Of a stretch of 64,000 nt of DNA, positions 406 to 60,701 are shown in pieces. The stretch's first letter is position 1. Every line of letters begins with the position of its first letter. The stretch lies in IMG/VR virus record IMGVR_UViG_3300014039_000006. The stretch is one strand, 5' to 3'. The position numbers and the translations under genes are program-made. The notes under the pieces are model-generated. The model was not told where the DNA came from and made no database searches. It was given only the letters and a program-made list of their open reading frames with translations. The stretch comes from a virus.

Positions 406-1245
406 ATGGCAATTAATAAAGTGGAATATAGCGGAAATACATTAATTGACTTGACTTCTGACAGCGTGACACCGGAATCTTTGCTTTCCGGTGTCACTGC
501 GCATGATGCGTCAGGAAATTTGATTACAGGAGAACTTAATCCGCAAAAAATATTTGATAATGCCGGATATCACAACAGTATTTTTCGCGGAAAGAACTTG
601 GGAACGTCTGTCACGGAAGAACAATACGAAGCTATTTCTTCCGGAGAGTTCACAGATTTATTTGTTGGCGATTACTGGACTTTGAATAACGTAGTTTACC
701 GTATCGTCGGCTTTGACCTGTTTTTACATACAGGAGATACAGAACTTACAACGCATCACGTTGTTATTGTTCCTGATAAAAATATGTACAGTCACGCGAT
801 GAACGATACAAATGTGACTACAGGTGGTTATTATAACAGCAAAATGAAACAAAGTGGTCTGACACAGGCTCTGACTACGGTAAAGGCGGCATTTGGTGAA
901 AGTCACATAGTAAAAAGAAGAGTAATTTTGACGAATGCCATAAGTGGAGATAATCCATCCGGATGGGCGTGGTACGATACCTACATTGACCTTATGACAG
1001 AACGGCAGGTATATGGATCTCCTGCATGGGGACAGGCGGCACATAATGGATATGATGCCGGATGTGAGTATTCAAGACTCCCATTGTTTACACTTGCACC
1101 GGAATTTATCACAAATAGAGCATGGTATTGGCTGCGAGATATCCGGTCGTCGTCTGCCTTCGCCGATGTCGGCAGCCTTGGCGGTGCCGACGGCGCCGGC
1201 GCGTCCTACTCCGGCGGGGTTCGCCCGCTTTTTTTAATCTCTTAA
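406..1245 (+). CDS. DGR variable target protein 1 (fibre-associated receptor-binding candidate, CLec/DUF1566- or DUF6273-like C-terminus)
   Basis: 279 aa. N-terminus repeats fibre motifs (SGVTAHDASGNLITGEL). C-terminus WYWLRD..SSSAF..GGVRPLF is encoded by VR1. Confidence 0.9.
   Translation: MAINKVEYSGNTLIDLTSDSVTPESLLSGVTAHDASGNLITGELNPQKIFDNAGYHNSIFRGKNLGTSVTEEQYEAISSGEFTDLFVGDYWTLNNVVYRIVGFDLFLHTGDTELTTHHVVIVPDKNMYSHAMNDTNVTTGGYYNSKMKQSGLTQALTTVKAAFGESHIVKRRVILTNAISGDNPSGWAWYDTYIDLMTERQVYGSPAWGQAAHNGYDAGCEYSRLPLFTLAPEFITNRAWYWLRDIRSSSAFADVGSLGGADGAGASYSGGVRPLFLIS
1142..1226 (+). repeat. DGR variable region VR1
   Basis: Manual alignment to TR 1849-1933: 85 nt, 21 differences, all at TR adenines (21 of 25 A changed), no non-A differences. 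Confidence 0.9.
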
Positions 1246-1247
1246 TC

Positions 1248-1279
1248 GTCAATCGCCGCCCCGTGTGGGCGGAGTTGAC
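1248..1279 (+). promoter_or_regulatory. GC hairpin downstream of VR1 (DGR target-recognition hairpin candidate)
   Basis: GTCAA-tcg-CCGCCC-cgtgt-GGGCGG-ag-TTGAC. The same CGTGT loop follows VR2 and VR3. Confidence 0.7.
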
Positions 1280-1848: not shown

Positions 1849-1933
1849 TCCAGTCGTCGTCTAACTTCGCCAATGTCAACAACAATGGCAATGCCAACAA
1901 CAACGACGCGTCCAACTCCAACGGAGTTCGCCC
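1849..1933 (+). repeat. DGR template repeat (TR)
   Basis: 85 nt with 25 adenines, many in AAC triplets. Non-coding position just upstream of the RT. Matches VR1, VR2 and VR3. Confidence 0.9.
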
Positions 1934-2068
1934 GATTTCACAACTACCTACTTGACATAGATTCTACTGGTAGCAATGGGAAAGGAAAGGTTATCCATTC
2001 AGTGGAAACTGATAAAAGAAAATTCCGATATACTAAGTTACGACAAGGTATTAGAAACGGGGTTAAAT

Positions 2069-3292
2069 ATGAATCCATTAATAGATGCGAATAGTTTATA
2101 TGACGCCGGAACACTTGCAATAAAAAGCAGCAGCTTCAAGTACAAAACACAATTATTTGAAATGAACCATCTTTTGGAAACTGCATTATTGCAGAGAGAA
2201 TTGCAAGAAGGAACGTATAAGCCGGAAAAAGGAACAAAGTTTCTGATCCATGAAAGAGGAAAAATCAGATACATCACAAGCAACACGATGAGGGATAAAA
2301 CGGTTAACCATGTGTTGTGTGATGAAATCGTCATACCATCCATAGAAAAGTACTTGATTTACGACAACAGCGCTTCGCAGAAAGGCAAGGGAACTTCTTT
2401 TGCCAGAAAGAGACTGGAAGAACACTTGCACAGTTATTATAGAAAATATGGAACTAATGACGGCTATATCTTGTTGATGGATTTTTCTGGTTATTATGCA
2501 AATATTCCACACGATAAATGCAAGGACATTCTGTATAGAATGGTTTTCCGAGACGGACTTGAAGAAGAACCGACCAAAACAGTAATTGAAAATATTTTTA
2601 AATCCTACGAAATGGATGTTTCCTATATGTCTGATGAAGAAATAAAAGTCTTGTATAGCACAAAGGTAGATCCTGTAATGAACCAAAACGTTCCGAAAGA
2701 ATTGCTTACAGAACAAAAGATGCTAAAGAAAGGAGCGGACATAGGAAATCAGCTTGCTCAAGCAATAGGAATTACTTTTCCTTATAAGATTGATAATTAT
2801 GTGAAAATCGTAAGAGGGTGCAAATTTTACGCCAGATATACGGATGACAGCTATATTATTTCGAGCGATAGGGAATTTTTGTTTGATGTTTTGGACGGTA
2901 TTAAAGAAATTGCGGATGAACATGGAATCATATTGAACAAAAAGAAAACGAGGATAGTAAAGATTTCCTCGTTTTTCAGATTTATGCAGATAGGATATTC
3001 CCTAACTGCCACAGGAAAAGTGATAAAGAAAATAAATCCTAAAAATGTGAGAAGGGAAAGGGTGAAGCTGAAAAAATATAAAAAGTTGTTAGATAATGGA
3101 AAAATGACATATGCAGACATAGAAAATTGCTTTAAGTCTTGGATATGTACATACTGGAAAATTATGTCGCACCAACAATTATACAATATGAACGCCCTGT
3201 ATAAGGAGCTGTTTGGAAAGGGAATAAAATGGAAAACGAAAAATTCACGATTACATTGGTTGATGGAACACAGTTCACCGGACTTTCAATGA
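2069..3292 (+). CDS. DGR reverse transcriptase
   Basis: RYTDDSYII (YxDD) motif. IGNQLAQ resembles the DGR-RT (I/L)GxxxSQ motif. The ORF is open from 1976, but ATG 2069 clears the TR. Confidence 0.9.
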   Translation: MNPLIDANSLYDAGTLAIKSSSFKYKTQLFEMNHLLETALLQRELQEGTYKPEKGTKFLIHERGKIRYITSNTMRDKTVNHVLCDEIVIPSIEKYLIYDNSASQKGKGTSFARKRLEEHLHSYYRKYGTNDGYILLMDFSGYYANIPHDKCKDILYRMVFRDGLEEEPTKTVIENIFKSYEMDVSYMSDEEIKVLYSTKVDPVMNQNVPKELLTEQKMLKKGADIGNQLAQAIGITFPYKIDNYVKIVRGCKFYARYTDDSYIISSDREFLFDVLDGIKEIADEHGIILNKKKTRIVKISSFFRFMQIGYSLTATGKVIKKINPKNVRRERVKLKKYKKLLDNGKMTYADIENCFKSWICTYWKIMSHQQLYNMNALYKELFGKGIKWKTKNSRLHWLMEHSSPDFQ

Positions 3293-3528
3293 ATGGTAAC
3301 TGCTTCATTAGTAGTACGGAGATTGAGAAAGACAAACTTGCCGATGACAATCTTTTGACTGTCACAATTAACGAAGAAACGTATGAGAATATGACTTGCG
3401 ACAATCTTTGGGAGGATAATGGAGAATGGTGGTTTATCTTGCGTGAAAAGACCACAGAGGAACTGAAAGAATTAGAACTGAATGCAAAGATTGAGTTCTT
3501 GATGGCGATGCAGGGGGTAATTGAATGA
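3229..3528 (+). CDS. hypothetical protein (position equivalent to XkdW)
   Basis: 99-aa ORF. ATGA overlap with the next gene. Confidence 0.5.
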   Translation: MENEKFTITLVDGTQFTGLSMNGNCFISSTEIEKDKLADDNLLTVTINEETYENMTCDNLWEDNGEWWFILREKTTEELKELELNAKIEFLMAMQGVIE

Positions 3529-3659
3529 GCAAAAATTTTAAAAAAGTACAAATGTACTACAAGATGGGTATTTACAATAAGCAGATAGTTAAAATGCTCG
3601 TATGGAAGCTGATTACTTCCGACGAGTACGAATTAATCACCGGAGAAAAGTATGAATAA
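3525..3659 (+). CDS. XkdX-family small protein
   Basis: 44 aa: MSKNFKKVQMYYKMGIYNKQIVKMLVWKLITSDEYELITGEKYE. Matches the XkdX pattern (YY.MG.Y....V...V....IT..EY..ITGE.Y). Confidence 0.65.
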   Translation: MSKNFKKVQMYYKMGIYNKQIVKMLVWKLITSDEYELITGEKYE

Positions 3660-3891
3660 TCCAGAAGAAAAATTTACAAGATCTGATGTGGAAATAGCGA
3701 TAGAAGAAGCCATTGACAGTTATACATTGCGCCTTATGGTTGCGGATAGTAAAAAACCCGATCTGCTTATTCAATCGTACAAAAGATTGCATGAAGATGG
3801 AAAGATATTAAAGAAAGATCTTCTTGATCGTGTAATGTGGGAAATCATTACACAGGAAGAATACAATTACATAACCGGACAGGAGGTATAA
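3652..3891 (+). CDS. hypothetical protein with XkdX-like C-terminus
   Basis: 79 aa ending ITQEEYNYITGQEV. Confidence 0.5.
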   Translation: MNNPEEKFTRSDVEIAIEEAIDSYTLRLMVADSKKPDLLIQSYKRLHEDGKILKKDLLDRVMWEIITQEEYNYITGQEV

Positions 3892-3895
3892 GTAT

Positions 3896-4261
3896 ATGGA
3901 AGAATGCATTAAATTAATTGCTGTATTGGCAATCCTAGCGTTGGCAAACATTGTCGGCGGTGTGGTAAACAATGTTAAGTTAAAGAAGTTTTCTTTCAGC
4001 TGGAAAAAACTGCTGAATGGAGTGATTCAGTTTTTAGGAATTGGATTTATGTTTGTAGCGTTGGCATATTGCATAGAAACCATTCCAGAAATTGGAAATG
4101 CTCTGGGCGTACAACCCAAAACAATGATATTAGCTGCTATTACCATATATGCAAAGAAGATTTTCGAGCAGCTTAATGATTTTATCAATTTAAAGAAGGA
4201 AATAAAGGCAAATTCGGAAGAAGAAAAAGAAGAAGTAGACACAGAATATATGGATATGTGA
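3896..4261 (+). CDS. holin
   Basis: 121 aa with 2-3 hydrophobic helices and a charged C-terminal tail. Immediately upstream of the endolysin. Confidence 0.7.
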   Translation: MEECIKLIAVLAILALANIVGGVVNNVKLKKFSFSWKKLLNGVIQFLGIGFMFVALAYCIETIPEIGNALGVQPKTMILAAITIYAKKIFEQLNDFINLKKEIKANSEEEKEEVDTEYMDM

Positions 4262-9613: not shown

Positions 9614-9955
9614 GGAGAAGGTGAAGAAATGTACATACCACCGTTTTGGTGCGGAGTGATTGCCACGATCTTATTTGAACTGGCAGTAACAATTATTATG
9701 GCATTTGCCGTAAGGACGAAACCGGAGAAAGGAGAGGAAGACGATGATCGTAACTAATTTTAATGAGATGAGCATTGAAGAACTGGAAGCTATTTGTGAC
9801 ACGCTCCACATGGAATTATCCATTAACGACGGAAAGATCGTAGGGGCAGAGGAATAGCACCTACAACGACCGGAAATCAGAATAGGTGCTATAAAGTGAA
9901 TCAGCTATTGCTTTTTCATGCCCTATTATACCGGAGAAAGGAGAAAAAGTCAAAC

Positions 9956-10324
9956 GTGACAAAAGATAGGATAGAAAAAATTCTTATGAATATGGGGATA
10001 TATCCATATCATGTTGGGTTTAAGTATCTTGTAGAAGCGATCCCGTTAGCTTTTGAAACCTTAGGAAAAACATCATTTGCAATGTATATCTATTGCGAGG
10101 TTGGAGAGAAATGCGGAGTTGATTACAGGTGCGTAGAACGTGGAATAAGAGAGTCGCTAAAGAACATCAAAAGAGATAGCAGCGATTTCAAAAAGTACAT
10201 CGGGATTAACAAGAATGAAAAGGTTACCACGAAGAAATTTCTTTCCATGTTTGCATACAATTCTTTAAAAGAAAGGGGTGAAAGAATTGAACGAGATACA
10301 AATAACAGGAACGGTATTGGATAA
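9956..10324 (+). CDS. Spo0A C-terminal (DNA-binding) domain-only protein
   Basis: GIYPYHVGFKYLVEAI...YCEVGEKCGVDYRCVERGIRESLKNI parallels Spo0A GVPAHIKGY.YLREAI...IAKK..TT.SRVERAIRHAIE. No receiver domain. GTG start after AGGAGA. Confidence 0.65.
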   Translation: MTKDRIEKILMNMGIYPYHVGFKYLVEAIPLAFETLGKTSFAMYIYCEVGEKCGVDYRCVERGIRESLKNIKRDSSDFKKYIGINKNEKVTTKKFLSMFAYNSLKERGERIERDTNNRNGIG

Positions 10325-16623: not shown

Positions 16624-16980
16624 ATGAAGATTATTGAGGGAAAAGAAAAAGAATACAAGGAATGGTACGACAAAAATAGCGATGCTTATAGCAGAGCATG
16701 TTTTACATTCGCAGAAAGATGGGCGGAACTTTTGGAAGAAAAAATAGACAACTCTTCCGATTGCCCGATGAAGGTAATTGTCGATAACGCAGAACAATTA
16801 AGTGACGAAGCAGACACAGAAGGAATCACGGGATTTATGTATGGTTGCGCTGTTAATATTCTCTCGAGAGAATGGGAATACGGCGATGAATTGAGAAGAT
16901 GGCATAACGGAAAATACGATTATCAGGGCGAAGGAACTGTAAATCCGGCTATTCTTACGGTTGGTGGCAAAGATGATTAA
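16624..16980 (+). CDS. hypothetical protein
   Basis: 118-aa ORF. Confidence 0.5.
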   Translation: MKIIEGKEKEYKEWYDKNSDAYSRACFTFAERWAELLEEKIDNSSDCPMKVIVDNAEQLSDEADTEGITGFMYGCAVNILSREWEYGDELRRWHNGKYDYQGEGTVNPAILTVGGKDD

Positions 16981-17677
16981 TCTGAAATGCCTATCTTCCG
17001 GAAGTAAAGGGAACTGCTATCTTCTGGAAGCTGATAACGGAGAAGTGCTTATCATTGATGCCGGAATACCAATCATGGATATTAAGCGTGGTCTGAACTG
17101 GAATGTAAGAAGTGTAGTCGGTGCGGTTGTTACGCACCGGCACACAGACCACAGTAAAAGCATTGATGATTTACGTCACATGGGAATAAGGGTTGTTGCA
17201 CCGTATGAATCCGGAAATGTAAAGTCCATGAGTTTTTCGATGGGAAGTTTCAAGATGCAGGCTTTTGATGTTCCACATAACGGTTGTTGGAATAACGGAT
17301 TTTTGATTAAGACTCCGGACGGACAGAAAATCTTGTATATGACCGATTTGGAGTATTGCCCGTATTCTTTCCGGAAGCAGAGCGTAGACCATATGCTTAT
17401 CGAGTGCAATTACATGAAATCACTGGTTGATACGGACGCTCCGAATTATGTTCACAAGATTCGAGGTCACTGTGAACTGGAAACGACAAAAGGAATCGTC
17501 AAAGAGAACGCAACAAATAGCCTTGTAAACGTTATATTGTGTCATTTGGGGCGTGATACTTGCGAAGAGGACAAAGTTATCGAAGAAGTAAAAAAGATCG
17601 TTCCTAAAGCCAATGTGGACGTTGCAAAAGTCGGTAAGGAATGGATTTTAAGAAAGGGCGGTGAGTGTCCGTTTTGA
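16973..17677 (+). CDS. MBL-fold metallo-hydrolase (candidate recombination nuclease)
   Basis: HRHTDH motif. Sits between RecT and SSB. Confidence 0.75.
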   Translation: MINLKCLSSGSKGNCYLLEADNGEVLIIDAGIPIMDIKRGLNWNVRSVVGAVVTHRHTDHSKSIDDLRHMGIRVVAPYESGNVKSMSFSMGSFKMQAFDVPHNGCWNNGFLIKTPDGQKILYMTDLEYCPYSFRKQSVDHMLIECNYMKSLVDTDAPNYVHKIRGHCELETTKGIVKENATNSLVNVILCHLGRDTCEEDKVIEEVKKIVPKANVDVAKVGKEWILRKGGECPF

Positions 17678-18884: not shown

Positions 18885-19451
18885 ATGAAGGTAAAAAGAA
18901 CAGTAACAATGAAAGTTAGCAATTTTGAGGTTGGCGATCGGATCACCGTAAAACTTTCTGGATATGGGAAGTTTACGGCTACGGCACACGAGATCACAGA
19001 CAAGGGAACACTATTTATCTTTGATGATTGTGTTTGTGAAAGACAAATGAACGAAGAAAATACGAATGAAGGTGGATATTTGGAATCAGACCTTAGAAAG
19101 TTTGTGGCACAGGATCTGTTAAAGGCATTTCCGGATAAACTTTTGGAGAGAATGGCAAAGGACGATAACGGAGATCTACTTTCCATTCCGACCTACGGAC
19201 AGGTTTTGGGTAAAGACTGGGACGATGAGTGGGATGAGAAAAACATTGAGATCGACAAGAGAGAACAATTGCCACTGATGCAGAAAAGAAAGAACCGGAT
19301 TGCAGATTTACAAAACGAATGGACATGGTACTGGTTGCAAAATAAAGTCCTGTCGTCGTCTGCCTTCGCCGGTGTCGGCGGCGATGGCTATGCCGGCTAC
19401 GCCGGCGCGTCCGACTCCGGCGGGGTTCGCCCAGCTTTCCTAATCAAGTAA
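18885..19451 (+). CDS. DGR variable target protein 2 (remote)
   Basis: Paralog of 25030-25599. C-terminus WYWLQNKVLSSSAFAGV..GGVRPAFLIK is encoded by VR2. No signal peptide. Confidence 0.85.
   Translation: MKVKRTVTMKVSNFEVGDRITVKLSGYGKFTATAHEITDKGTLFIFDDCVCERQMNEENTNEGGYLESDLRKFVAQDLLKAFPDKLLERMAKDDNGDLLSIPTYGQVLGKDWDDEWDEKNIEIDKREQLPLMQKRKNRIADLQNEWTWYWLQNKVLSSSAFAGVGGDGYAGYAGASDSGGVRPAFLIK
19348..19432 (+). repeat. DGR variable region VR2
   Basis: 85 nt aligned to TR: 21 differences, all at TR adenines. Confidence 0.85.
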
Positions 19452-19459
19452 TCATTAAT

Positions 19460-19480
19460 CCACGCCCCGTGTGGGCGTGG
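19460..19480 (+). promoter_or_regulatory. GC hairpin downstream of VR2
   Basis: CCACGCCC-cgtgt-GGGCGTGG, 28 nt after VR2. Confidence 0.7.
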
Positions 19481-19511
19481 AAATGGAAGTAAATTAAAGG
19501 AGTGACAAGAA

Positions 19512-25029: not shown

Positions 25030-25599
25030 ATGAAAGCATGGAGAAAAGTAAAAATGGAGATCAAAAACTATGAGGTCGGAGATCAGATCGCGGTGAAACT
25101 CAAAGGCTTCGGAAAATTTACTGCAACGGCACAGAGAGTTTATGACGATGGAAAAACGCTGTTTCTTTTCGATAACTGCGTTGCAGAACGGCAGATGAAC
25201 GAAAACGGTTCAAATTCCGGAGGTTTTTATGAATCCGACTTATGCAAGTGGATGAATACAGAATTGGTGAAAACTTTTCCCACTAAACTTCTTGACCGCA
25301 TGATTTATACGAACGAAGAACATGAATGCCTGCTTCGAATTCCGACAAGAAAGGAAATGTTCGGAGAAGATGAATATAGTCAATATTACGAACCGGATAA
25401 CGAGGAACAATTTGAACTTATGAAAGACAGAAAAAACCGTGTTTGTTCTCTTCCTGATGATGAATATGCATGGTATTGGTTGATGAATGCGCATCTCCGG
25501 TCGTCGTCTTACTTCGCCCCTGTCAGCGCCAGTGGCCGTGCCAACGGCTTCGGCGCGTCCAGCTCTGGCGGGGTTCGCCCGGCTTTCCTAATCAAGTAA
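25030..25599 (+). CDS. DGR variable target protein 3 (remote)
   Basis: Paralog of 18885-19451. C-terminus WYWLMNAHLRSSSYFAPV..GGVRPAFLIK is encoded by VR3. Confidence 0.85.
   Translation: MKAWRKVKMEIKNYEVGDQIAVKLKGFGKFTATAQRVYDDGKTLFLFDNCVAERQMNENGSNSGGFYESDLCKWMNTELVKTFPTKLLDRMIYTNEEHECLLRIPTRKEMFGEDEYSQYYEPDNEEQFELMKDRKNRVCSLPDDEYAWYWLMNAHLRSSSYFAPVSASGRANGFGASSSGGVRPAFLIK
25496..25580 (+). repeat. DGR variable region VR3
   Basis: 85 nt aligned to TR: 19 differences at TR adenines plus one C-to-T at TR position 71. Confidence 0.85.
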
Positions 25600-25607
25600 T
25601 CATTAAT

Positions 25608-25628
25608 CCACGCCCCGTGTGGGCGTGG
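25608..25628 (+). promoter_or_regulatory. GC hairpin downstream of VR3
   Basis: CCACGCCC-cgtgt-GGGCGTGG. The roughly 58 bp after the VR are identical to the VR2 flank. Confidence 0.7.
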
Positions 25629-25665
25629 AAATGGAAGTGAAATTAAAATTTCGGAGGTAAAGTAG

Positions 25666-26253
25666 ATGGCACAATATAGAACAAAATCATGTGAAATTGA
25701 AGCAATTCAATGGACTGATAATACAAATGAAATAAAATCATTTTGTGGAAATAGTTGCACATATTCCGTAGAAGAACAGTGCATGGGAAGTTGGAAAGGC
25801 ATTCCGATCGAGAGATTGATTATTCACACATTGGAAGGAGATATGGTTGCAAGCAGAAACGACTACATCATAAAAGGATTGAAAGGTGAATTTTATCCAT
25901 GCAAGCCAGATGTATTTAACCAAAAGTATAAATTAATAAATGATACTATGGAAATACAAGAAGAGCAGAGATGGATACCGGTAACTGAAAGGTTGCCAGA
26001 AGAACTTACACCAGTAAATATTACGTGGATAAATAGAAATCCTGAACAATATTATGCGGATATAAAGGATGTTCCTTTTTCCACTACAGGAGTTTTTCAT
26101 CGCGGAAAGTGGTATTGGTGGTCTACGGTAGTTGTTGATTATCTTTCAGAATATGGAAGATATGACATGGATTTGGTAGATAAAGATATTGAAATTATAG
26201 CATGGCAACCGTTGCCGGAGCCGTACAAAGGAGAAAATAACCACAATATGTAG
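25666..26253 (+). CDS. protein with C-terminal DUF551-like domain
   Basis: RWIPVTERLPEEL...IIAWQPLPEPY. Confidence 0.6.
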   Translation: MAQYRTKSCEIEAIQWTDNTNEIKSFCGNSCTYSVEEQCMGSWKGIPIERLIIHTLEGDMVASRNDYIIKGLKGEFYPCKPDVFNQKYKLINDTMEIQEEQRWIPVTERLPEELTPVNITWINRNPEQYYADIKDVPFSTTGVFHRGKWYWWSTVVVDYLSEYGRYDMDLVDKDIEIIAWQPLPEPYKGENNHNM

Positions 26254-26279
26254 CAATCCCGGATTACAAGATATTGTAT
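26238..26279 (+). repeat. 42-bp direct repeat, copy A
   Basis: taaccacaatatGtagcaatcccggatTAcaagatattgtat. 39/42 identical to 37271-37312. Has internal dyad symmetry (acaatat..atcc c ggat..atattgt). Confidence 0.8.
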
Positions 26280-26284
26280 GGAAA

Positions 26285-27061
26285 GTGAGGAAAATAATGG
26301 CAAGGAGAGAATTGTTACACATAAGTAAATTAAATGATTTTGGGAAATGGCTTGAAGAACAAGGATATATGATTTTACCAACGAGCAAAAATCCATATGA
26401 GGTTTTAAGAGCAAAAAAGGATAAGGATATAGTAATCATTTATTGCAAAGCAAGTAGTAAGGAACATTTGTCCATAATGGATAAGGATTATTCTTTGATT
26501 CGAAGATTTATCAACGAAAGTAAGAAGAATGTCAATGTCGACCGAATTGAGAACATGACGGAGAATGAAGCGGTTAAGTATATGAAGATAGAAAGAGAGT
26601 GCATTAATCGAAATTGCGACAGGAATTGCGCAGAATGCGATATTGTACAGGAAGTAGATGATCTGAACAGTGCTTATGATGTCGCGATTAAGGCGTTGAA
26701 AGACATTTCTTGGTATCAGGCATTGGGAAATAAAGAAGAATGCCAAAAAGCATTTATTCTTTACAGGGAAATGTATAAGCGAAAGTTTACGCTTGAAATC
26801 GTGGAAGAGTACATGAAGTTTGAAGACGAATGTCTAAGAAAGAACTTTACTTTTAAGAGTTTGATCGAAGCAAGAGAAAAGCAGACACCAAAGCAGCCAT
26901 GTCTTGAAGGTGACGGATACGCAGATGGACATCTTGTATATAACACGTGGATCTGTCCTTGCTGCGGCAAGTATTATGAGATTGACTATGAAAAATATGA
27001 TTACTGCCCGAATTGCGGACAGGCTGTAGATTGGAGTATGGAAAATGAAGATATTGATTGA
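26285..27061 (+). CDS. hypothetical protein with C-terminal zinc ribbon
   Basis: 258 aa. CPCCGKYY...CPNCGQ. Confidence 0.5.
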   Translation: MRKIMARRELLHISKLNDFGKWLEEQGYMILPTSKNPYEVLRAKKDKDIVIIYCKASSKEHLSIMDKDYSLIRRFINESKKNVNVDRIENMTENEAVKYMKIERECINRNCDRNCAECDIVQEVDDLNSAYDVAIKALKDISWYQALGNKEECQKAFILYREMYKRKFTLEIVEEYMKFEDECLRKNFTFKSLIEAREKQTPKQPCLEGDGYADGHLVYNTWICPCCGKYYEIDYEKYDYCPNCGQAVDWSMENEDID

Positions 27062-27506
27062 TATTCCAAAAGAATTTGAGATTGATTACCGTACAGACAG
27101 ATTCGCTGACTTTTTTGGTCGTGTTGAAGCTGACATGGATGTGATATGCGGCAACTATGAGAGAGAAACAGCGGATATGATGGTAAATGCTTTTGCCGAA
27201 AGCAGACCATACGATTTGGACGTAGTTATGGAGCAGTTAGAATCGAGAACGGATATTGACAAAATAATAGGGAAAAAGAAAGAATACGGAAGGTGGATTC
27301 CAGTAGAAGAATACCTACCTCCGATACCAGAAAGCGAATACATACACATTCTTCATTCAAGCGAAGTTGTTGCCGTATTATCTGATTGCGGAAACGTATT
27401 TATTGCTAAATACAACTTTGGTATTGAAAGGTGGATAGGGGCATCGGATCATAAAATTACTCATTGGACTCCATTACCGGAAACACCCGAGAAAGGAATA
27501 AAATGA
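27045..27506 (+). CDS. protein with DUF551-like domain
   Basis: RWIPVEEYLPPIPE...ITHWTPLPETP. Confidence 0.6.
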   Translation: MKILIDIPKEFEIDYRTDRFADFFGRVEADMDVICGNYERETADMMVNAFAESRPYDLDVVMEQLESRTDIDKIIGKKKEYGRWIPVEEYLPPIPESEYIHILHSSEVVAVLSDCGNVFIAKYNFGIERWIGASDHKITHWTPLPETPEKGIK

Positions 27507-27745
27507 ACATAAGCAAAAAACTAATTGATTTTATGTGGATTCCTGTTTCCAAAAGGCTGCCGAAAGAAGATTTGTATTGCAAGGGAGCAAGTAAACCTTG
27601 TTTGGTTGCAGCGAGAAAATACGGAGTTTTTGATGCATATTATGATTTTGAAAACCATGAATGGGCTTTTCTTGAAGAAGAATGCTATGCTTCTACAAAC
27701 GAAGTTACCCACTGGATGCCAATTTCGGAAGCACCGTGGAAATAA
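27503..27745 (+). CDS. DUF551-like protein
   Basis: MWIPVSKRLPKED...VTHWMPISEAP. Confidence 0.6.
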   Translation: MNISKKLIDFMWIPVSKRLPKEDLYCKGASKPCLVAARKYGVFDAYYDFENHEWAFLEEECYASTNEVTHWMPISEAPWK

Positions 27746-27799
27746 AAATTATCTTCATAATAGATTAAATAACCTCATATAATGAAAGGAAAACGGCTT

Positions 27800-28179: not shown

Positions 28180-29544
28180 ATGAATTGTGTCGCATATATG
28201 CGTGTTTCAACGGAGAAACAAGCAGAAGAAGGAAATGGATTGGATAGTCAAAAACGGGATATCGAAATATATTGTCGCAAAAATGAGTTGATTATATCCG
28301 ATTGGTATATTGATGACGGATATACAGGAGCGAATACCGATAGACCGGCTTTGCAAAGGCTGATTACGGATTGTTCAAAACACAGGATAAAATGCATAGT
28401 TGCTTTTAAACTGGACAGGCTTTCACGTAGCATGGTTGATGGAATATACTTGATAGAGAGAGTTTTCATGCCAAATCAAGTAGAATTTAAGTGCGTGCAT
28501 GACAGTGTAAGCTATGATAGTCCTATGGAACAAGCATACACACAAATGATGGCTGTATTTGCACAACTTGATAAAAACACGATGCTGTTGAGAATGCGCG
28601 GAGGAATGCTTGAAAGAGTAAAAAAAGGATATTGGATGGGCGGTGGAAATACACCTTATTGTTACCGATATGATACTGAATCCGGTACACTGATTCCGAT
28701 ACCTGAAAGAGCAGAACAGGCAAGGCAAGCGTTAGAAATGTTCATAAACGGATATTCTGATGAACAAATAATGAAAATGTTTGGATATAAAAGCGAATTT
28801 GTTGTCAGAAGAATACTTACCGGAGTTGTAAACATTGGGATGATACCGTACAAAGGAGAGGTTTTTCAAGGACTTCACGAACCTATCTTTGATAAAAGCC
28901 GGTTTGAACTTGCACAGGAAATAAGAAAGTCCAGAAGAATAACAAGGACAAAATGCTTTGACCGAGAAACAAATTTGCTTACTGGATTATGTTATTGTGG
29001 CGTGTGCGGTTGCAAAATGAGATACCAGAAATGGACTCATGGAAAGCACAGGATTTATTGCTGTTCCAGAAACAAGGATTTAAACTATCTTCCGAACTGG
29101 TCTGAAAATTGCGATAATTCTCTTGTGTGGGCGATTGATATTGAGAAGCAAGTTGAAAAAGAGATACTGAAAATATCCGTTAATCTTTCAAAAAGCAAGC
29201 CAAAAGAGAAGAAAAGTAAACTTGAAATCATGGAATCACAGCTTGATAAAGAGAAAGTAAAGTTAAAAAGGCTTTATTCTTTATACGCAGACGGAAACGA
29301 CACCGTTCTTGACATGATTAAAGACCTAGAACTGAAAATTGATGGGATGAAGATGAAAATAACAGAAGAAGCCAAAAGTCCGTTGAATACACAGAAGAAA
29401 GAGTTTGTTTATGAAAATATAAAAAACCTTGCCGATATGTGGGGTCACATTGACAAGGCTAAGAAAAACTCTATATTAAAAAGCATAATATCTAAAATTG
29501 TAATTGTCAATGATGATATTGAAATACAATTAAAAAACTTTTAG
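28180..29544 (+). CDS. large serine recombinase (integrase)
   Basis: AYMRVSTEKQ catalytic-Ser motif, a recombinase domain, a Cys-rich zinc ribbon (CYCGVCGC...YCCS) and a coiled-coil C-terminus. Confidence 0.9.
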   Translation: MNCVAYMRVSTEKQAEEGNGLDSQKRDIEIYCRKNELIISDWYIDDGYTGANTDRPALQRLITDCSKHRIKCIVAFKLDRLSRSMVDGIYLIERVFMPNQVEFKCVHDSVSYDSPMEQAYTQMMAVFAQLDKNTMLLRMRGGMLERVKKGYWMGGGNTPYCYRYDTESGTLIPIPERAEQARQALEMFINGYSDEQIMKMFGYKSEFVVRRILTGVVNIGMIPYKGEVFQGLHEPIFDKSRFELAQEIRKSRRITRTKCFDRETNLLTGLCYCGVCGCKMRYQKWTHGKHRIYCCSRNKDLNYLPNWSENCDNSLVWAIDIEKQVEKEILKISVNLSKSKPKEKKSKLEIMESQLDKEKVKLKRLYSLYADGNDTVLDMIKDLELKIDGMKMKITEEAKSPLNTQKKEFVYENIKNLADMWGHIDKAKKNSILKSIISKIVIVNDDIEIQLKNF

Positions 29545-35019: not shown

Positions 35020-35157
35020 ATGAAAAATTCTTACACAATGGTTACCATTCCACAAGAAAGATACGATCGCATGGTGGAATCCTACGACAAGGCACTGAAA
35101 GAACTGGAAGAACTTCGGAAGGAGTTGGAACAGTTCAAGAAGGGCGGTGCTTGCTGA
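35020..35157 (+). CDS. hypothetical small coiled-coil protein
   Basis: 45 aa with an AGGAGG RBS. Not in the ORF track. Confidence 0.4.
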   Translation: MKNSYTMVTIPQERYDRMVESYDKALKELEELRKELEQFKKGGAC

Positions 35158-35846
35158 TGAATGAACTTGTAAACATTGAGGGAACGGATTTAAGAATTCG
35201 CGAGTGGAACGGTCAAAGAGTGGTTACGTTTAATGATATTGATGAAGTTCACGGAAAAAGGCCAGGAACTTCGAGAAGAAACTTCAACAGATATAAGCAA
35301 TATTTTGTTCAAGGTGAAGATTTCTTTTCTCTGACAAGAGAATGTTCTAATGAGACAAATTGTCCCAATAGAAACATTAAAATACCAAACAAAGGTATTG
35401 TGGTGTTGACAGAAAGCGGTTATTTGATGATAACAAAGACTTTCAATGATGAACTTTCTTGGAAAGTACAACGATCTTTGGTCGAAGTTTATTTTCATTG
35501 CAAGGGATTACAGGAAGAAGTTGATCCAGAAACCGATGATGCGGACATTGACTTGATCGAGGAAAAACCGCAAGTGCCACTTATCAAAGGGTGGCACAAC
35601 CGGAACAAGGGCAGACTTGCAAGGATTCAGAGCCGTACCGGACTCACATTGACAAGGATTTACCATTGCATCCTTAAGAATGTCGGCGAAAAATACGACC
35701 TCAAGGAAGCAAACAATATGTACAAGAAATGCACCGGAAAAGAACCGGAATACGCAATGGACATTGTAGAATACTTTCCGGAACTTGCGGAAGCTGCCGA
35801 CAGGTATCTGGACGGCGTAGAACGAGCATTGAACGCAAGGAGGTAG
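35157..35846 (+). CDS. ORF6N/antirepressor-like DNA-binding protein
   Basis: LRIREWNGQRVVTFNDIDEVHGKRPGTSRRNFNRYKQYFVQGEDFF fits the ORF6N pattern. Confidence 0.65.
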   Translation: MNELVNIEGTDLRIREWNGQRVVTFNDIDEVHGKRPGTSRRNFNRYKQYFVQGEDFFSLTRECSNETNCPNRNIKIPNKGIVVLTESGYLMITKTFNDELSWKVQRSLVEVYFHCKGLQEEVDPETDDADIDLIEEKPQVPLIKGWHNRNKGRLARIQSRTGLTLTRIYHCILKNVGEKYDLKEANNMYKKCTGKEPEYAMDIVEYFPELAEAADRYLDGVERALNARR

Positions 35847-56367: not shown

Positions 56368-56396
56368 CTACGCCGTCTATTTTGCGAGGTGAGATT

Positions 56397-59300
56397 ATGG
56401 CAGAAATTGATGATTTAACCGTGAAAGTCAATGCCGATGCGAAACAAGCGGATAGTGCACTAGAAAAACTGGTATCTCAATTAGAAACAGTCAACAGCGC
56501 ACTTGGCAAGATCATGTCTGGAAATGCTTTTTCAAATATGGAAGAGAGTGCAAAAGCGGCATCTGCATCTATGCAAGGTATATCTACCTCTACAAAGCGT
56601 GTATCAGACGAAATAGGCTCTCAAATGAAAAAGGCAAGCAATTCTATTAAGGGAGTTGAAACGCCCGTAAAAGAGACGTTTAAGAGCATTGAGGACGTTA
56701 TTGCCAAGCTTGGACAGAAGTCTATTGATATAAAGCCACAAATTGACACTGCCAATCTTGCCGGAGAACAGAAGAAATACACTGAACAGTTAAAAAATAT
56801 GCAGAATGGCATCAATCGTGTTTTAAATTCTGCGCATCCAGAAAAGAAAATTGGTACTTTGGATTCTCTTGTTGTAAGGTTGAACGAAGCAAAGAACGCA
56901 TTGAAGGAAATCGAAAAACTGCAAGGTTCTGTATCAACTTCTACTTCTGAAATGCCAGAAGTTAAATGGTATTGGGAAGACAAAAGAGATCCTAAGGATA
57001 TTATAGAAGAGTACAAGTCAGATCTTGATAATTGGAAGCAGTACTTAGAGAACTTCAATCAGGGAAATTACAAAGCGCCTACATCGCACATGGTAGAAGC
57101 AATAGGAAAATCTATTGAAGAACTTAAGTCTAAATTTCCAGAAGCAAAGGAAACCATTGCTGAATATGAAAAATTATTTGAAGATTTCTCTGCCGTTGCA
57201 GTTCCTAGTAAAGTTTCAAGCAATGCACAAATTAAAAATCCGTTAGAAAATACAGAAAAAGAAATTGATAGATTTAAAAAGGCTCTTGACTCCGTTGAAC
57301 CATTAGAATTTAGCGGAAATTTTTATGAAATGGAAAAGTGGGTTAGCGATCTAAATACAAAATTAGATTTACTCATTGGAAAAAGAGAAAAACTGACGGA
57401 TTTAGGTGCAAACATGGACACGCAAAGAATCCAGTCCATGACCTACGATATTGAACAACTCATAAAAACCATAGATAAATATGGAGTTCAAGTTGAAAAA
57501 GCAAGGCAAGCCGGAGAGTTAGAAATAGTAACACCCTCCCTAGATGCTTCGTTTTTAGAATCAGAAAGAAAAGCACAAAAATCTGCGAATACCATTGCCG
57601 AAATATTTAAGAATAGCAAAATTATTGTTCCAACAGAAGGATTTAAGGAAGTACAAAAAGAAATTGAAAAGGTAGAAAAAAGATTTAATGAAGTAGCGGC
57701 AAGTATAAAGAATAAATCCAGATCAGTAGAATTTTATGGCGCAACAGGAGATTTTAAAAGAAAGCAAGCAGAAATAGTTGCTCTTGGAAATGAATATCAG
57801 AGATTAATCAATAAGCAGAAAGAAATGGCTATTCTGCGATTTGATTCTAAGGGATTTACGGACGGTCTTACAAAACTGCAAGGATTTGTCTCTAAGACCT
57901 CAAATACACTTGGAAGAATCAATAAGAGAATTAATGAGTTCGGAAGAAAACTACTATCCCTTGTAGCACCGACACAAAAAGCAAGAGCAGCACTTAAGGG
58001 ATTAGACGTTACCAACATCGGACTTGCAAATAGTTTACTCCGCACAACCAAAATGCTAAAGCTGATGATCGTAAGAATGGCTTTGCGTGGTGTGATTGAC
58101 GGAGTAAAAACCGGAATGCAGAACCTGGCAATGTATTCGGACGAAACGAATGCAAGTCTTTCTCTGCTGATGAACAGCCTTAATCAGCTTAAAAATTCCT
58201 TTGCGGCGGCAGTAGCACCTATTTTAAATGCCTTTGCACCGGCATTAGATAAGATTATTCAGTTATGCATTAAAGCCGTAAATGCCATTAATCAAGTGAT
58301 TTCCGCATTACTTGGAAATGGTACTTTTATTCGTGCTAAAAAACTGACAGACAGTTACAGAGATTCTATCAGTGGCGCATCAAGCGCGGCAGAAGAACTT
58401 AATAAGCAGTTACAGGGATTTGATAAATTAAATAATCTTACCACTTCAAAAAGCGGCGGTGGAGCCGGTTCTACAACAACGAATCCGGAAGATATGTTTG
58501 AAACTGTCAACATTGAAGATAAGTGGAAAGATTTGGCAGATAAAATCAAGAATATCTTAAGCAAAATTTTTGATCCACTGAAAGAAGCGTGGAAACGTGC
58601 CGGAGATTTTGTAATGAAATCTTGGAAGTTTGCACTTCAAGAAGTATGGAAACTAATTAAAAGCATTGCAAAAGATTTTCTTGAGGTATGGAATGAAGAA
58701 GAGACCATACAGGTTCTTGAAAATATACTTCTGATTATTGGAGATATTGGTTTAACAATCGGATATCTTGCACAAGGATTTCGTGAAGCGTGGGAAGAAA
58801 ACGACACCGGACTTCATATTTTGCAGAATATCCGAGACATTATCGGAGTAATCGTTGAGAACATTCTTCATGCGGCTGACGCAACGGTTGAATGGGCAAA
58901 AAACCTTGATTTTTCACCGTTACTTACAAAGATCGAGGAATGGACGGCATCATTAGTTACTGTATTCGATAATTTGTCCGGAATTGTTACTGATTTTTAT
59001 GAAAAAGTTTTACTTCCACTTGCAAAATGGACGCTAGAAAAAGGTCTTCCTGACTTGCTACAAGTGTTTATTGATTTCAACGAAAAAGTTGACTGGGAGA
59101 AACTTCGTAATAATTTAAAGACTTTGTGGGAACACATAGAGCCGTTTGAGGAAACAATCGGAGAGGGATTGATTATTTTTGTAAGAGATATATCAGATGC
59201 TCTTGCAAACTTTATAAATAGTCAAGAATTTGAGGATTTTCTGACAAAAATTGAAGAGTGGATGGACAACGTTTCTGCAGAGGATGTGGCAAATACCTTG

Positions 59301-60701
59301 AAAGATATAGCCGCCGGAATTATCGTCTTAAAAGTTGCAACAGCAACATTTAGCACATTATCACCGGCTATTGAGGTTATCAAGTCACTGGTAAACGTTC
59401 TAAGCGGAATCAAAATGGCAAAAGCCTTAAAGAATCTTGCTAAGTTGGGCGGGGGCGGTGCAACTGCATCGGCATCTACCGGAGGTGTGCTTAGTAGTCT
59501 TGGTGGACTTAAGGGTTTGCTTTTTGGAGACCTTGGAACTATTTTCGGTGCCGGAACAGCAACAGAAATTGCAGCCACAATTGGAGTCGGTCTTGTCGGT
59601 GCACTAGGAGCATGGTTTGCCGGAAACTGGACAGGAAAACAGTTGGGAGCATTGCTTTTCCCGGACATGAAAGAAGAGTATCTAAACTTCCATTGGCTTG
59701 GTGAAGGTGGATTTTTCGACCAGTTATTTGATAAGGAAGATTTTGCATCGTTTGACAGCATCAAGGATAAATTCAAAGAATTATCCGATGCGTGGGATAT
59801 GATGAAATCCGATTTTGCAGACAATCCTTTGATTGCTTCATTCACGACATTTATAGATTCAACGGTAAATAGTCAAAACCACTTAGGTAATTTAGTTGAA
59901 AAAATAAAAGAAGTACCGGAAGCGTGGGAAACAACCAAAACAAAGTTTTTGGAAATTGTGGATTCTGTAAAAGCAAAATGGGAAGAAATCAAGACGGGAT
60001 TTACAGACACCGTAGAAGAATGGAAGGAAAAGGCACTTGAACTAAAAGAAAATATCCAACAAAAGGTTACCGATTTTGTAGACGGAATCAAGGAAAAGTG
60101 GGAAAACATCAAGGCAGACTTTGATGAACTGAAAGAATCTATCGTACAAAAGTACGAAGATTTCAAAGAAAAGGTTGCAAACAAGTTAGATGAAATGAAG
60201 CAGTCATGGGATGATACGTGGTCTGCAATCGGAGAAGCCGTAGGCGGTACAGTAAAATCTATCATTGATGCAGTTACCAGTGCAATTTCGTGGATTCAGA
60301 GTTTGATTGGAAACATCAACGCAATTCCGCAAACGGTAAACATCGGCGTGAATATGGGTACGGAAATCGGAAAGAACGCCGCAAAAAAAGTCCGAGGTTA
60401 TGCTTCCGGTGGATTTATCGAACCGGCAACGTACTTCAAAGCCGGAGAAAACGGTGTACCGGAAATCCTTGGAACGGTCGGCGGTAAGTCGGCAGTAGCC
60501 GGTGGACAGGAAATTACCGGAATTTCCAATGCAATTTACAGTACCGGACAGACCGAAGCACAACTTTTATCGACGGCGGTACAGTTTTTACAGATTATTG
60601 CACAAAAAGATTTCAGCATCAATTCTTCCGATGCGTTCAACGCAATTCGGGAAGAAGCGCATTCATACGAGAAGCGGACAGGAGATAAGGCATTCACTTA
60701 A
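56397..60701 (+). CDS. tape measure protein
   Basis: About 1434 aa, with coiled-coil and hydrophobic G/A-rich segments, in the canonical position. Confidence 0.9.
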   Translation: MAEIDDLTVKVNADAKQADSALEKLVSQLETVNSALGKIMSGNAFSNMEESAKAASASMQGISTSTKRVSDEIGSQMKKASNSIKGVETPVKETFKSIEDVIAKLGQKSIDIKPQIDTANLAGEQKKYTEQLKNMQNGINRVLNSAHPEKKIGTLDSLVVRLNEAKNALKEIEKLQGSVSTSTSEMPEVKWYWEDKRDPKDIIEEYKSDLDNWKQYLENFNQGNYKAPTSHMVEAIGKSIEELKSKFPEAKETIAEYEKLFEDFSAVAVPSKVSSNAQIKNPLENTEKEIDRFKKALDSVEPLEFSGNFYEMEKWVSDLNTKLDLLIGKREKLTDLGANMDTQRIQSMTYDIEQLIKTIDKYGVQVEKARQAGELEIVTPSLDASFLESERKAQKSANTIAEIFKNSKIIVPTEGFKEVQKEIEKVEKRFNEVAASIKNKSRSVEFYGATGDFKRKQAEIVALGNEYQRLINKQKEMAILRFDSKGFTDGLTKLQGFVSKTSNTLGRINKRINEFGRKLLSLVAPTQKARAALKGLDVTNIGLANSLLRTTKMLKLMIVRMALRGVIDGVKTGMQNLAMYSDETNASLSLLMNSLNQLKNSFAAAVAPILNAFAPALDKIIQLCIKAVNAINQVISALLGNGTFIRAKKLTDSYRDSISGASSAAEELNKQLQGFDKLNNLTTSKSGGGAGSTTTNPEDMFETVNIEDKWKDLADKIKNILSKIFDPLKEAWKRAGDFVMKSWKFALQEVWKLIKSIAKDFLEVWNEEETIQVLENILLIIGDIGLTIGYLAQGFREAWEENDTGLHILQNIRDIIGVIVENILHAADATVEWAKNLDFSPLLTKIEEWTASLVTVFDNLSGIVTDFYEKVLLPLAKWTLEKGLPDLLQVFIDFNEKVDWEKLRNNLKTLWEHIEPFEETIGEGLIIFVRDISDALANFINSQEFEDFLTKIEEWMDNVSAEDVANTLKDIAAGIIVLKVATATFSTLSPAIEVIKSLVNVLSGIKMAKALKNLAKLGGGGATASASTGGVLSSLGGLKGLLFGDLGTIFGAGTATEIAATIGVGLVGALGAWFAGNWTGKQLGALLFPDMKEEYLNFHWLGEGGFFDQLFDKEDFASFDSIKDKFKELSDAWDMMKSDFADNPLIASFTTFIDSTVNSQNHLGNLVEKIKEVPEAWETTKTKFLEIVDSVKAKWEEIKTGFTDTVEEWKEKALELKENIQQKVTDFVDGIKEKWENIKADFDELKESIVQKYEDFKEKVANKLDEMKQSWDDTWSAIGEAVGGTVKSIIDAVTSAISWIQSLIGNINAIPQTVNIGVNMGTEIGKNAAKKVRGYASGGFIEPATYFKAGENGVPEILGTVGGKSAVAGGQEITGISNAIYSTGQTEAQLLSTAVQFLQIIAQKDFSINSSDAFNAIREEAHSYEKRTGDKAFT

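Follow-up and report, generated by a model that had tools for sequence, protein, structure and literature searches.

Evidence for a distant third target of a phage diversity-generating retroelement, rewritten independently of its two other targets

We analysed a stretch of gut-phage DNA of 64,000 nucleotides (nt), IMG/VR record IMGVR_UViG_3300014039_000006, referred to here as the window. The window carries a diversity-generating retroelement (DGR), whose cassette consists of an accessory gene (avd), a template repeat (TR) and a gene for a reverse transcriptase (RT). Three genes of the window end in a variable repeat (VR) that matches the TR, and the last of these, VR3, lies 23.6 kb away from it. 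We conclude, with little doubt, that VR3 is a genuine target of the DGR and has been rewritten independently of VR1 and VR2. The geometry of the repeats, the specificity of their differences for adenine, the invariance of the TR, the independent turnover of VR1 and VR3, and the conservation and covariation of a hairpin behind the VRs are all observed directly in the sequences compared.

The TR is 85 nt in length and contains 25 adenines and 60 other bases. It aligned to VR3 without gaps, with mismatches concentrated at the adenines of the TR (Fisher p = 7.6e-13), and the same adenine bias was found when all three VRs were compared with the TR (Fisher p from 3e-16 to 8e-13). The lone non-adenine change in VR3 is a C>T at 25566, corresponding to TR position 70, which converts TCC to TCT and is synonymous; the lone non-adenine change in VR2, a G>A at the final base, is also silent. 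When both strands of the window were searched with the 85-nt TR, any base being allowed at its 25 adenines, only four copies were found, these being the TR, VR1, VR2 and VR3. All three VRs lie in frame at the 3' ends of three genes and have a reading frame in common with the TR, which reads QSSSNFANVNNNGNANNNDASNSNGVR. VR3 itself makes up the codons for residues 157-184 of a 189-amino-acid (aa) protein. The VRs also differ from one another chiefly at sites templated by adenine: VR1 and VR2 differ at 12 positions (11 at TR-adenine sites), VR1 and VR3 at 16 (15 at such sites), and VR2 and VR3 at 21 (19 at such sites). Measured from start to start, VR3 is 23,647 nt away from the TR, and the stretch between the first base of VR1 and the last base of VR3 covers 24,439 nt. 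VR2 is 17.4 kb from the TR, and both VR2 and VR3 are found outside the structural module. VR3 falls within the definition of a non-adjacent target given by Wu et al. 2018, with a single TR/RT cassette located 23.6 kb away in the same phage genome. An original prediction, made from the sequence of the window, had placed VR3 at 25496-25580, beginning one base earlier than the repeat defined here (25497-25581). On recounting we obtained the same 19 adenine differences and the same single C-to-T change, which it had assigned to TR position 71 and which is position 70 in our numbering. Its estimates of 23.6 kb from the TR and a spread of about 24.5 kb agree with the measured distances, and its statement that the VRs differ from each other at A-templated positions holds for almost all of the differing positions.

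Table. Features of the DGR and its three targets in the window (ORF, open reading frame; IMH, initiation of mutagenic homing)
Feature	Position	Strand	Description
Target gene 1, 279 aa	406..1245	+	ORF; end of tail module, adjoins cassette; VR1 at 3' end
VR1	1143..1227	+	Mismatches to TR: 21/25 adenines, 0/60 non-adenines
Hairpin after VR1	1256..1272	+	CCGCCC-CGTGT-GGGCGG; DNA fold z = -3.7
avd (accessory variability determinant), 175 aa	1296..1823	+	PHROG 3206 'Avd protein of DGR', E = 2.8e-5, residues 5-168
TR	1850..1934	+	25 A, 24 at codon positions 1 or 2; 11 AAY codons
Reverse transcriptase, 438 aa as ORF	1976..3292	+	Pfam RVT_1 E = 1.6e-12; PHROG 1423 E = 1e-51
Target gene 2, 188 aa, DUF6273	18885..19451	+	Pfam PF19789; early/replication module
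VR2	19349..19433	+	Mismatches to TR: 21/25 adenines, 1/60 non-adenines
VR2 3' flank, hairpin 19459-19481	19434..19490	+	Identical to VR3 flank
Target gene 3, 189 aa, DUF6273	25030..25599	+	Pfam PF19789 E = 2.4e-12, residues 40-189; PHROG 21980
VR3	25497..25581	+	Mismatches to TR: 19/25 adenines, 1/60 non-adenines
VR3 3' flank, hairpin 25607-25629	25582..25638	+	IMH-like linker; TCCACGCCC-CGTGT-GGGCGTGGA; 57/57 nt identical to VR2 flank

We examined natural variation among relatives of the phage for evidence that VR3 is active. Megablast searches with the VR3 region and with the cassette found no match among GenBank phages, and exact-pattern scans with the adenines masked found none in IMG/VR, the GTDB genomes or the JGI metagenomes; the sole source of near-identical genomes was exact-protein matching to ENA and Logan assemblies. 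The near-clonal genome from ERZ27300201, which comes from another sample and is represented by contigs L007 and L021, was compared with the window over 36,120 nt. This comparison revealed 24 differences, of which 16 are in VR3 and 8 in VR1, with none in VR2 and none elsewhere. Over the 20,588 nt compared with L007 all 16 differences are contained within VR3, which has changed on a time scale over which no other substitution accumulated. Fifteen of the VR3 differences are at TR-adenine sites, and the sixteenth is at position 70, where ERZ27300201 carries a C, as does the TR. Five of the changed sites have the TR adenine in the other genome and another base in the window, the reverse being found at others, and these two-way changes look like two independent draws from the TR. 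The 8 differences in VR1, seen in L020 and L021, are also all at TR-adenine sites. In another relative, L012 (ERZ27300218), a comparison over 19.6 kb found differences only in VR1, with VR2 unchanged. No difference in the TR was seen in any of the five relatives whose contigs include it (L010, L011, L012, L020 and L021). The occurrence of VR1 and VR3 changes on otherwise identical backbones indicates that the three VRs change independently. One TR/RT serving three targets, with independent retrohoming into each, had been proposed in the original prediction, and both elements of the proposal are supported: the single cassette is matched by three in-frame VRs, VR3 and VR1 changed separately in ERZ27300201 with VR2 left as it was, and VR1 changed in L012 while VR2 stayed the same. 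The prediction had also looked to related genomes for separate variation of each VR, and in these genomes VR1 and VR3 vary separately, with adenine-specific divergence of VR3 at 15 TR-adenine sites.

Variation over a wider range of phages was assessed from protein clusters formed at 90% identity. The VR1 protein cluster has 64 members; most of the variation falls in the VR (15 of the 64 members read), and the window's own variant is found on 2-3 contigs. The VR2 cluster has 12 members, which vary in the VR, and the window's variant is found on 12 contigs. The VR3 cluster has 3 members with 2 distinct VR sequences, one being the window's variant, on 16 contigs, and the other being found on 2. 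These numbers are indicative of a much faster turnover of VR1 than of VR2 and VR3 on the window's backbone. The L012 orthologue of target gene 1 (L012 1198-2040) has a 3-nt insertion in addition to adenine-site changes, resulting in a 280-aa product, and a second 280-aa variant (P0006) is present in the same VR1 protein cluster. Orthologues of the VR3 protein in clusters c1 and c2 (84-88% identity, from sister phages of about 67 kb) have 14-15 different VR sequences per cluster, the variable columns being codons with an adenine in the window's TR, with one single-variant exception; outside the VR these proteins are almost invariant, with 1 and 4 variable columns. In clusters c5 and c6 the VR is frozen while the rest of the protein drifts. 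The P0080 and P0088 clusters (79-82% identical to the VR3 protein, 10 members each) have an essentially frozen VR with substitutions elsewhere, the opposite of what the active clusters display, which suggests that the DGR has been lost or inactivated in those phages. Judged from these alignments, the VR3-gene family includes decayed as well as active states. In both L025 and L027 the VR3 orthologue is still found behind a DnaD-like gene. In L025 the VR2 orthologue (3450-4067) has a 2-nt deletion in the VR, and the resulting frameshift carries translation through the hairpin; in L027 no VR2 orthologue was found within 8 kb upstream of the VR3 orthologue. The VR3 locus thus appears to be the more conserved of the two remote targets.

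One alternative is that VR3 is a fossil, a remote site that is no longer used while VR1 alone remains active. Such a reading would fit the constancy of the window's VR3 and VR2 proteins across the contigs that carry them, compared with the scarcity of its VR1 variant, and it would also fit the VRs of c5 and c6, which are frozen in drifting proteins, and the frameshifted VR2 orthologue of L025. We nevertheless consider it very improbable. The 16 VR3 differences separate genomes that are otherwise the same over 36 kb (VR1 aside), with 15 at TR adenines and five restoring the TR adenine, a pattern that calls for a new TR-templated replacement since the divergence of the two genomes; VR3 has also kept its hairpin and flank intact. 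Some considerations do weigh against VR3 being an active target that is rewritten on its own. Turnover of VR3 is rare in this lineage, and VR3 may be a low-efficiency target. The contigs in the protein clusters are not independent samples, and the counts obtained from them are only indicative. The evidence for activity comes from comparison of assembled contigs and bears on differences between genomes from separate samples. The RT was assigned by profile matches, and a Foldseek search of the PDB with the VR3 protein model returned no known C-type-lectin DGR variable proteins.

Homologous recombination or gene conversion could also be invoked for the VR3 differences, the partner being one of the other VR copies or a co-infecting relative. 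The three VRs and their flanks are more than 75% identical, the VR2 and VR3 flanks are identical to each other, and in L023 the flanks have two substitutions in common that point to some concerted evolution. However, the best donor within the genome accounts for only 6 of the 16 changed VR3 sites, and three of the new bases are absent from every other copy. Gene conversion among the genome's own copies was rejected on this basis, no donor being able to supply more than 6 of the 16 new bases. In addition, the changes are confined to TR-adenine positions (position 70 excepted), no flanking marker has been exchanged, and only VR1 also differs over the 36 kb, so that a recombinational origin of the differences is barely credible. 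A final possibility is that reads of VR1, VR2 and VR3 were mixed during assembly, creating a chimeric VR3, and it is true that the L008, L013 and L023 assemblies break exactly at VR flanks. We regard the probability of such an artefact as negligible: 16 contigs that differ in assembler and source carry the same VR3, L009 has an identical copy, and the unique body of the gene runs straight into the VR in frame. Our preferred interpretation is that VR3 is rewritten from the TR.

The VRs are distinguished from the TR by the sequence that follows them. VR2 and VR3 are followed by a common flank of 57 nt that contains the last five codons, the stop codon, an AATC-rich linker and a stem-loop with a 9-bp stem, and beyond which the two sequences diverge; the original prediction had described an identical flank of about 58 bp including the stop codon and hairpin, and both are indeed contained in the 57 nt. 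As single-stranded DNA the VR3 flank folds at -15.3 kcal/mol (z = -3.75), and there is no hairpin after the TR (z = +1.3). The VR1 hairpin has the same position and loop as those of VR2 and VR3, and its stem differs by a compensatory pair. The sequence GTTCGCCCG is common to TR and VR, after which the VR continues with GCTTTCCTAATC... and the TR with ATTTCACAACTA... Among homologous targets in other phages, 13 of 14 keep a GC-rich stem of 6-9 bp with a 5-nt loop located 20-27 nt past the VR, and the stems differ by compensatory changes, for example CTCCGGGC/GCCCGGAG and CCGGGGCC/GGCCCCGG. The flank and hairpin are presumed, by analogy, to be a target-recognition element, and the covarying hairpin together with the identical 57-nt flank provides a defined candidate for the targeting signal of a non-Bordetella DGR. 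An intrinsic terminator was rejected as an identity for the hairpin, there being no T-tract and no flag from a terminator scan. In the sister lineage L023 (1-60 and 8393-8450), both flanks have the same two substitutions relative to the window, an A>G in the stem that produces a G-T pair and a G>T in the loop. These common substitutions suggest concerted evolution of the VR2 and VR3 flanks, which between such remote sites could involve a homogenising step of an unfamiliar kind. In L025 the VR2 and VR3 flanks differ from each other at 2 positions before the hairpin and at several after it, indicating that strict identity of the two flanks is not universal.

A mechanism modelled on the DGR of Bordetella phage BPP-1 would account for these features. 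The TR (1850-1934) would be transcribed, and the RT together with Avd would copy the transcript to cDNA, misincorporating opposite adenines. The cDNA would then replace a VR wherever a matching 3' end exists, this being made up of the GC-rich GGGGTTCGCCC, the IMH-like linker and the GC-rich hairpin about 25 nt downstream. The cDNA would act in trans, and distance should therefore not matter; it could in this way serve the VR1 gene of the tail module as well as the two small DUF6273 genes that carry VR2 and VR3. Separate rewriting events at each site would randomise 11 AAY codons along with a CAG and a GAC codon, affecting the last 30 or so residues of a putative ligand-binding domain. The route from RNA through cDNA to VR, the role of the hairpin and linker in targeting, and the binding of ligands by the target proteins are all drawn from the BPP-1 system and would apply here to the extent that the analogy holds.

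The order of genes at the end of the tail module (target, avd, TR, RT) is that of a classic DGR, with avd situated between target gene 1 and the TR. There is only one Avd/TR/RT cassette in the window and the 1,955 nt that close the circle of the genome (see below); the tape-measure gene is found at 56382-60701 of this circular genome. The avd ORF (1296-1823) has no Pfam match. The RT ORF begins 42 nt past the TR, although some gene callers choose a later start that results in a product of 407 aa, and its RVT_1 score is 48 bits against a cut-off of 29.6. Searches of NCBIfam with the RT gave only sub-threshold matches to group II intron, Drt3a and retron models, and no DGR-specific model fired. 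The best match among PDB sequences was 8ub7_A (E = 5e-9), a 328-aa chain named 'Reverse transcriptase' that is probably the Bordetella bRT. RTs of DGRs have the motif IGxxxSQ (I/LGxxxSQ), at the site of which the translated RT reads IGNQLAQ. The C-terminal half of target 1 is 25% identical to the VR3 protein (E = 5e-16), the two having this C-terminal domain in common.

The VR3 gene has a GGAGG ribosome-binding site 8 nt 5' of its ATG. The proteins with VR2 and VR3 are 52% identical (E = 8e-64) and are both included in PHROG 21980, which has no assigned function; the original prediction of paralogy between 25030-25599 and 18885-19451 is upheld by this similarity. Upstream of the VR the DNA of the two genes is 59.8% identical with several indels, and they are old paralogues. 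A recent duplication was rejected on the grounds that the gene bodies are only 60% identical in DNA. An AlphaFold2 model of the VR3 protein, built with 65 homologues, has a mean predicted local distance difference test score of 82.5, with low confidence in the VR loop (residues 158-176). DUF6273 proteins from uncultured gut phages match the model with E values down to 5e-6. The only near-significant Foldseek match of the model in the PDB is a Thomasclavelia IgA peptidase (E = 0.055), whose N-terminal domain is identified as DUF6273 in the publication on the enzyme. No match to the VR3 protein was obtained in a profile search of PDB sequences. No signal peptide is apparent in the VR3 protein, its N-terminal sequence having been judged by eye.

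The genes around VR2 and VR3 in the early/replication module, based on Pfam and PHROG matches, encode single-stranded DNA-binding protein (SSB), helix-turn-helix regulators, an N6/N4 methyltransferase, a DnaD-like loader and several DUF551 proteins; this group of genes also includes one for a large serine recombinase (28180-29544). Directly 3' of the VR3 gene, at 25666-27782, are three to four genes with DUF551 matches. Two adjacent genes 1.2 kb upstream of the VR2 gene (16624-16980 and 16973-17677) have Pfam matches to Tad4 and to Lactamase_B, the latter with a faint match to Anti-Pycsar Apyc1, making them a candidate anti-defence pair. The gene products of the phage include a Spo0A_C-domain protein (9896-10324) and two SSBs. 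Small DUF6273 proteins are found amid early/replication genes on other backbones as well, namely those of Acutalibacter phage Fontainebleau, L031, L032 and L033, among which that of Fontainebleau alone was checked as a DGR target. One reading of these surroundings, which we think rather unlikely, is that the small DUF6273 targets are not receptor-binding proteins of the virion but binders diversified by the DGR, with a role within the infected cell or following release. It draws on their small size (about 189 aa), the lack of an apparent signal peptide, the early/replication location, the position 1.2 kb from the Tad4/Apyc1-match pair, and the presence of small DUF6273 proteins among early/replication genes on Fontainebleau, L031 and L033. 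Such proteins could serve as hypervariable counter-defence, host-takeover or receptor-masking factors, and if this were true a phage DGR would diversify an arms-race effector distinct from the adsorption apparatus.

The complete genome could be reconstructed from L010, a MEGAHIT contig of 66,074 bp from ERZ27300203. This contig is 100% identical to the window and bridges the end of the window to its start by 1,955 nt (L010 7641-9595), which contain tail-module genes and in which no further TR or VR was found. If the ends of the contig overlap by one k-mer (119 nt), as is usual for contigs of this kind, the assembled genome is a circle of about 65,955 bp. Several independent assemblies of this phage and its sister lineage terminate at VR flanks: the first base of L008 corresponds to 25584, the last of L013 to 19463, and L023 begins at the 3' edge of VR2. 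Breaks of this kind would be expected from the 57-nt repeat, from VR heterogeneity or from both, and surveys of short contigs will tend to miss remote targets of this type. The only match in GTDB was a 46%-identical homologue on a 3.4-kb bacterial contig. A host among the Clostridia is only suggested, by the Spo0A_C, XkdX and Amidase_3 genes and by matches to Acutalibacter and Roseburia phages.

The DGR of Bordetella phage BPP-1 (mtd-avd-TR-brt) is the prototype of these elements. As BPP-1 is reported, the present DGR has in common with it the order target-avd-TR-RT at the end of the tail module, an AAY-rich TR, adenine-specific differences and the location of the VR at the 3' end of the target. 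A GC-rich end common to TR and VR, a VR-specific flank and a GC-rich hairpin after the VR and not after the TR are further reported similarities, a VR-specific hairpin or cruciform together with the IMH reportedly being a feature of the Bordetella phage DGR. The two systems differ in their targets, BPP-1 reportedly having a single adjacent one, Mtd, which is a C-type-lectin tail-fibre tip, whereas here there are three with DUF6273 domains. The hairpin loops also differ, with the 5-nt CGTGT found here compared to the GAAA reported for BPP-1.

Remote and small DUF6273 targets have been described in phages of Faecalibacterium. Phage Toutatis has one cassette and two VRs (Egorov et al. 2024, bioRxiv 10.1101/2024.10.15.618418). 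Like VR2 and VR3, the second VR of Toutatis is remote; it belongs to a core gene with no assigned function and is separated from the TR by 17,480 nt, and both targets are DUF6273 proteins with a C-terminal VR. Toutatis differs in having two targets rather than three and in that its adjacent target is Hoc-like with Ig domains; its backbone appears unrelated, the window having no megablast match in the GenBank phage collection. The prophages Lelie and CP11 each have a large and a small DUF6273 target with the VR at the C-terminus, and variation peaks at both VRs across cognate genomes for CP11, with no activity signal for Lelie (PMC11792537). These prophages differ from the present phage in having two VRs, and no pair of paralogous small targets was reported for them.

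In the survey of Wu et al. 2018 (PMC5758913), 45 of 372 DGRs had non-adjacent targets, about 13% had two targets, with three or more being rarer, and phage-associated DGRs often had a second target at a distance of up to 50 kb in the same prophage. The Treponema denticola DGR, with seven remote targets, resembles the present case in having one TR and several VRs kilobases away, but its targets are cellular lipoproteins spread across the chromosome and not phage genes. Gut-phage DGRs with two targets were described by Baykov et al. 2023. Remote targets were undetectable to the largest metagenomic survey (Roux et al. 2021), the contigs being short, and loci such as VR3 show what was missed, namely small DUF6273 proteins of the early/replication module, found repeatedly as the second or third target in gut Clostridia phages.

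Acutalibacter phage Fontainebleau (ON453893.1) has a DGR that we recognised in the present analysis. The record annotates only 'reverse transcriptase' and hypothetical proteins, and a term search of the paper naming the phage found no mention of DGR or reverse transcriptase. Its TR (35105-35187) lies beside the annotated reverse transcriptase, and a tail-module gene ends in an adjacent VR (from 34390). The remote VR (9800-9882), located 25.3 kb from the TR, has 14/22 adenine and 0/61 non-adenine mismatches, and both VRs are followed by hairpins. The remote target is a 189-aa protein, 41% identical to the VR3 protein, encoded between DNA polymerase I and a helicase. Fontainebleau is a 39-kb phage that differs from the present one in its backbone and in having two targets rather than three; as it is both cultured and an inducible prophage, it makes the function of the small target experimentally approachable. 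The arrangement reported here is thus already known, non-adjacent phage targets and small DUF6273 targets many kilobases from the TR having been published, and no new mechanism is involved. The additions made here are modest and consist of the presence of three targets, the pair of paralogous small remote targets, and, in a phage genome of about 66 kb, a natural and clear-cut case of independent rewriting of three genes by a single cassette.

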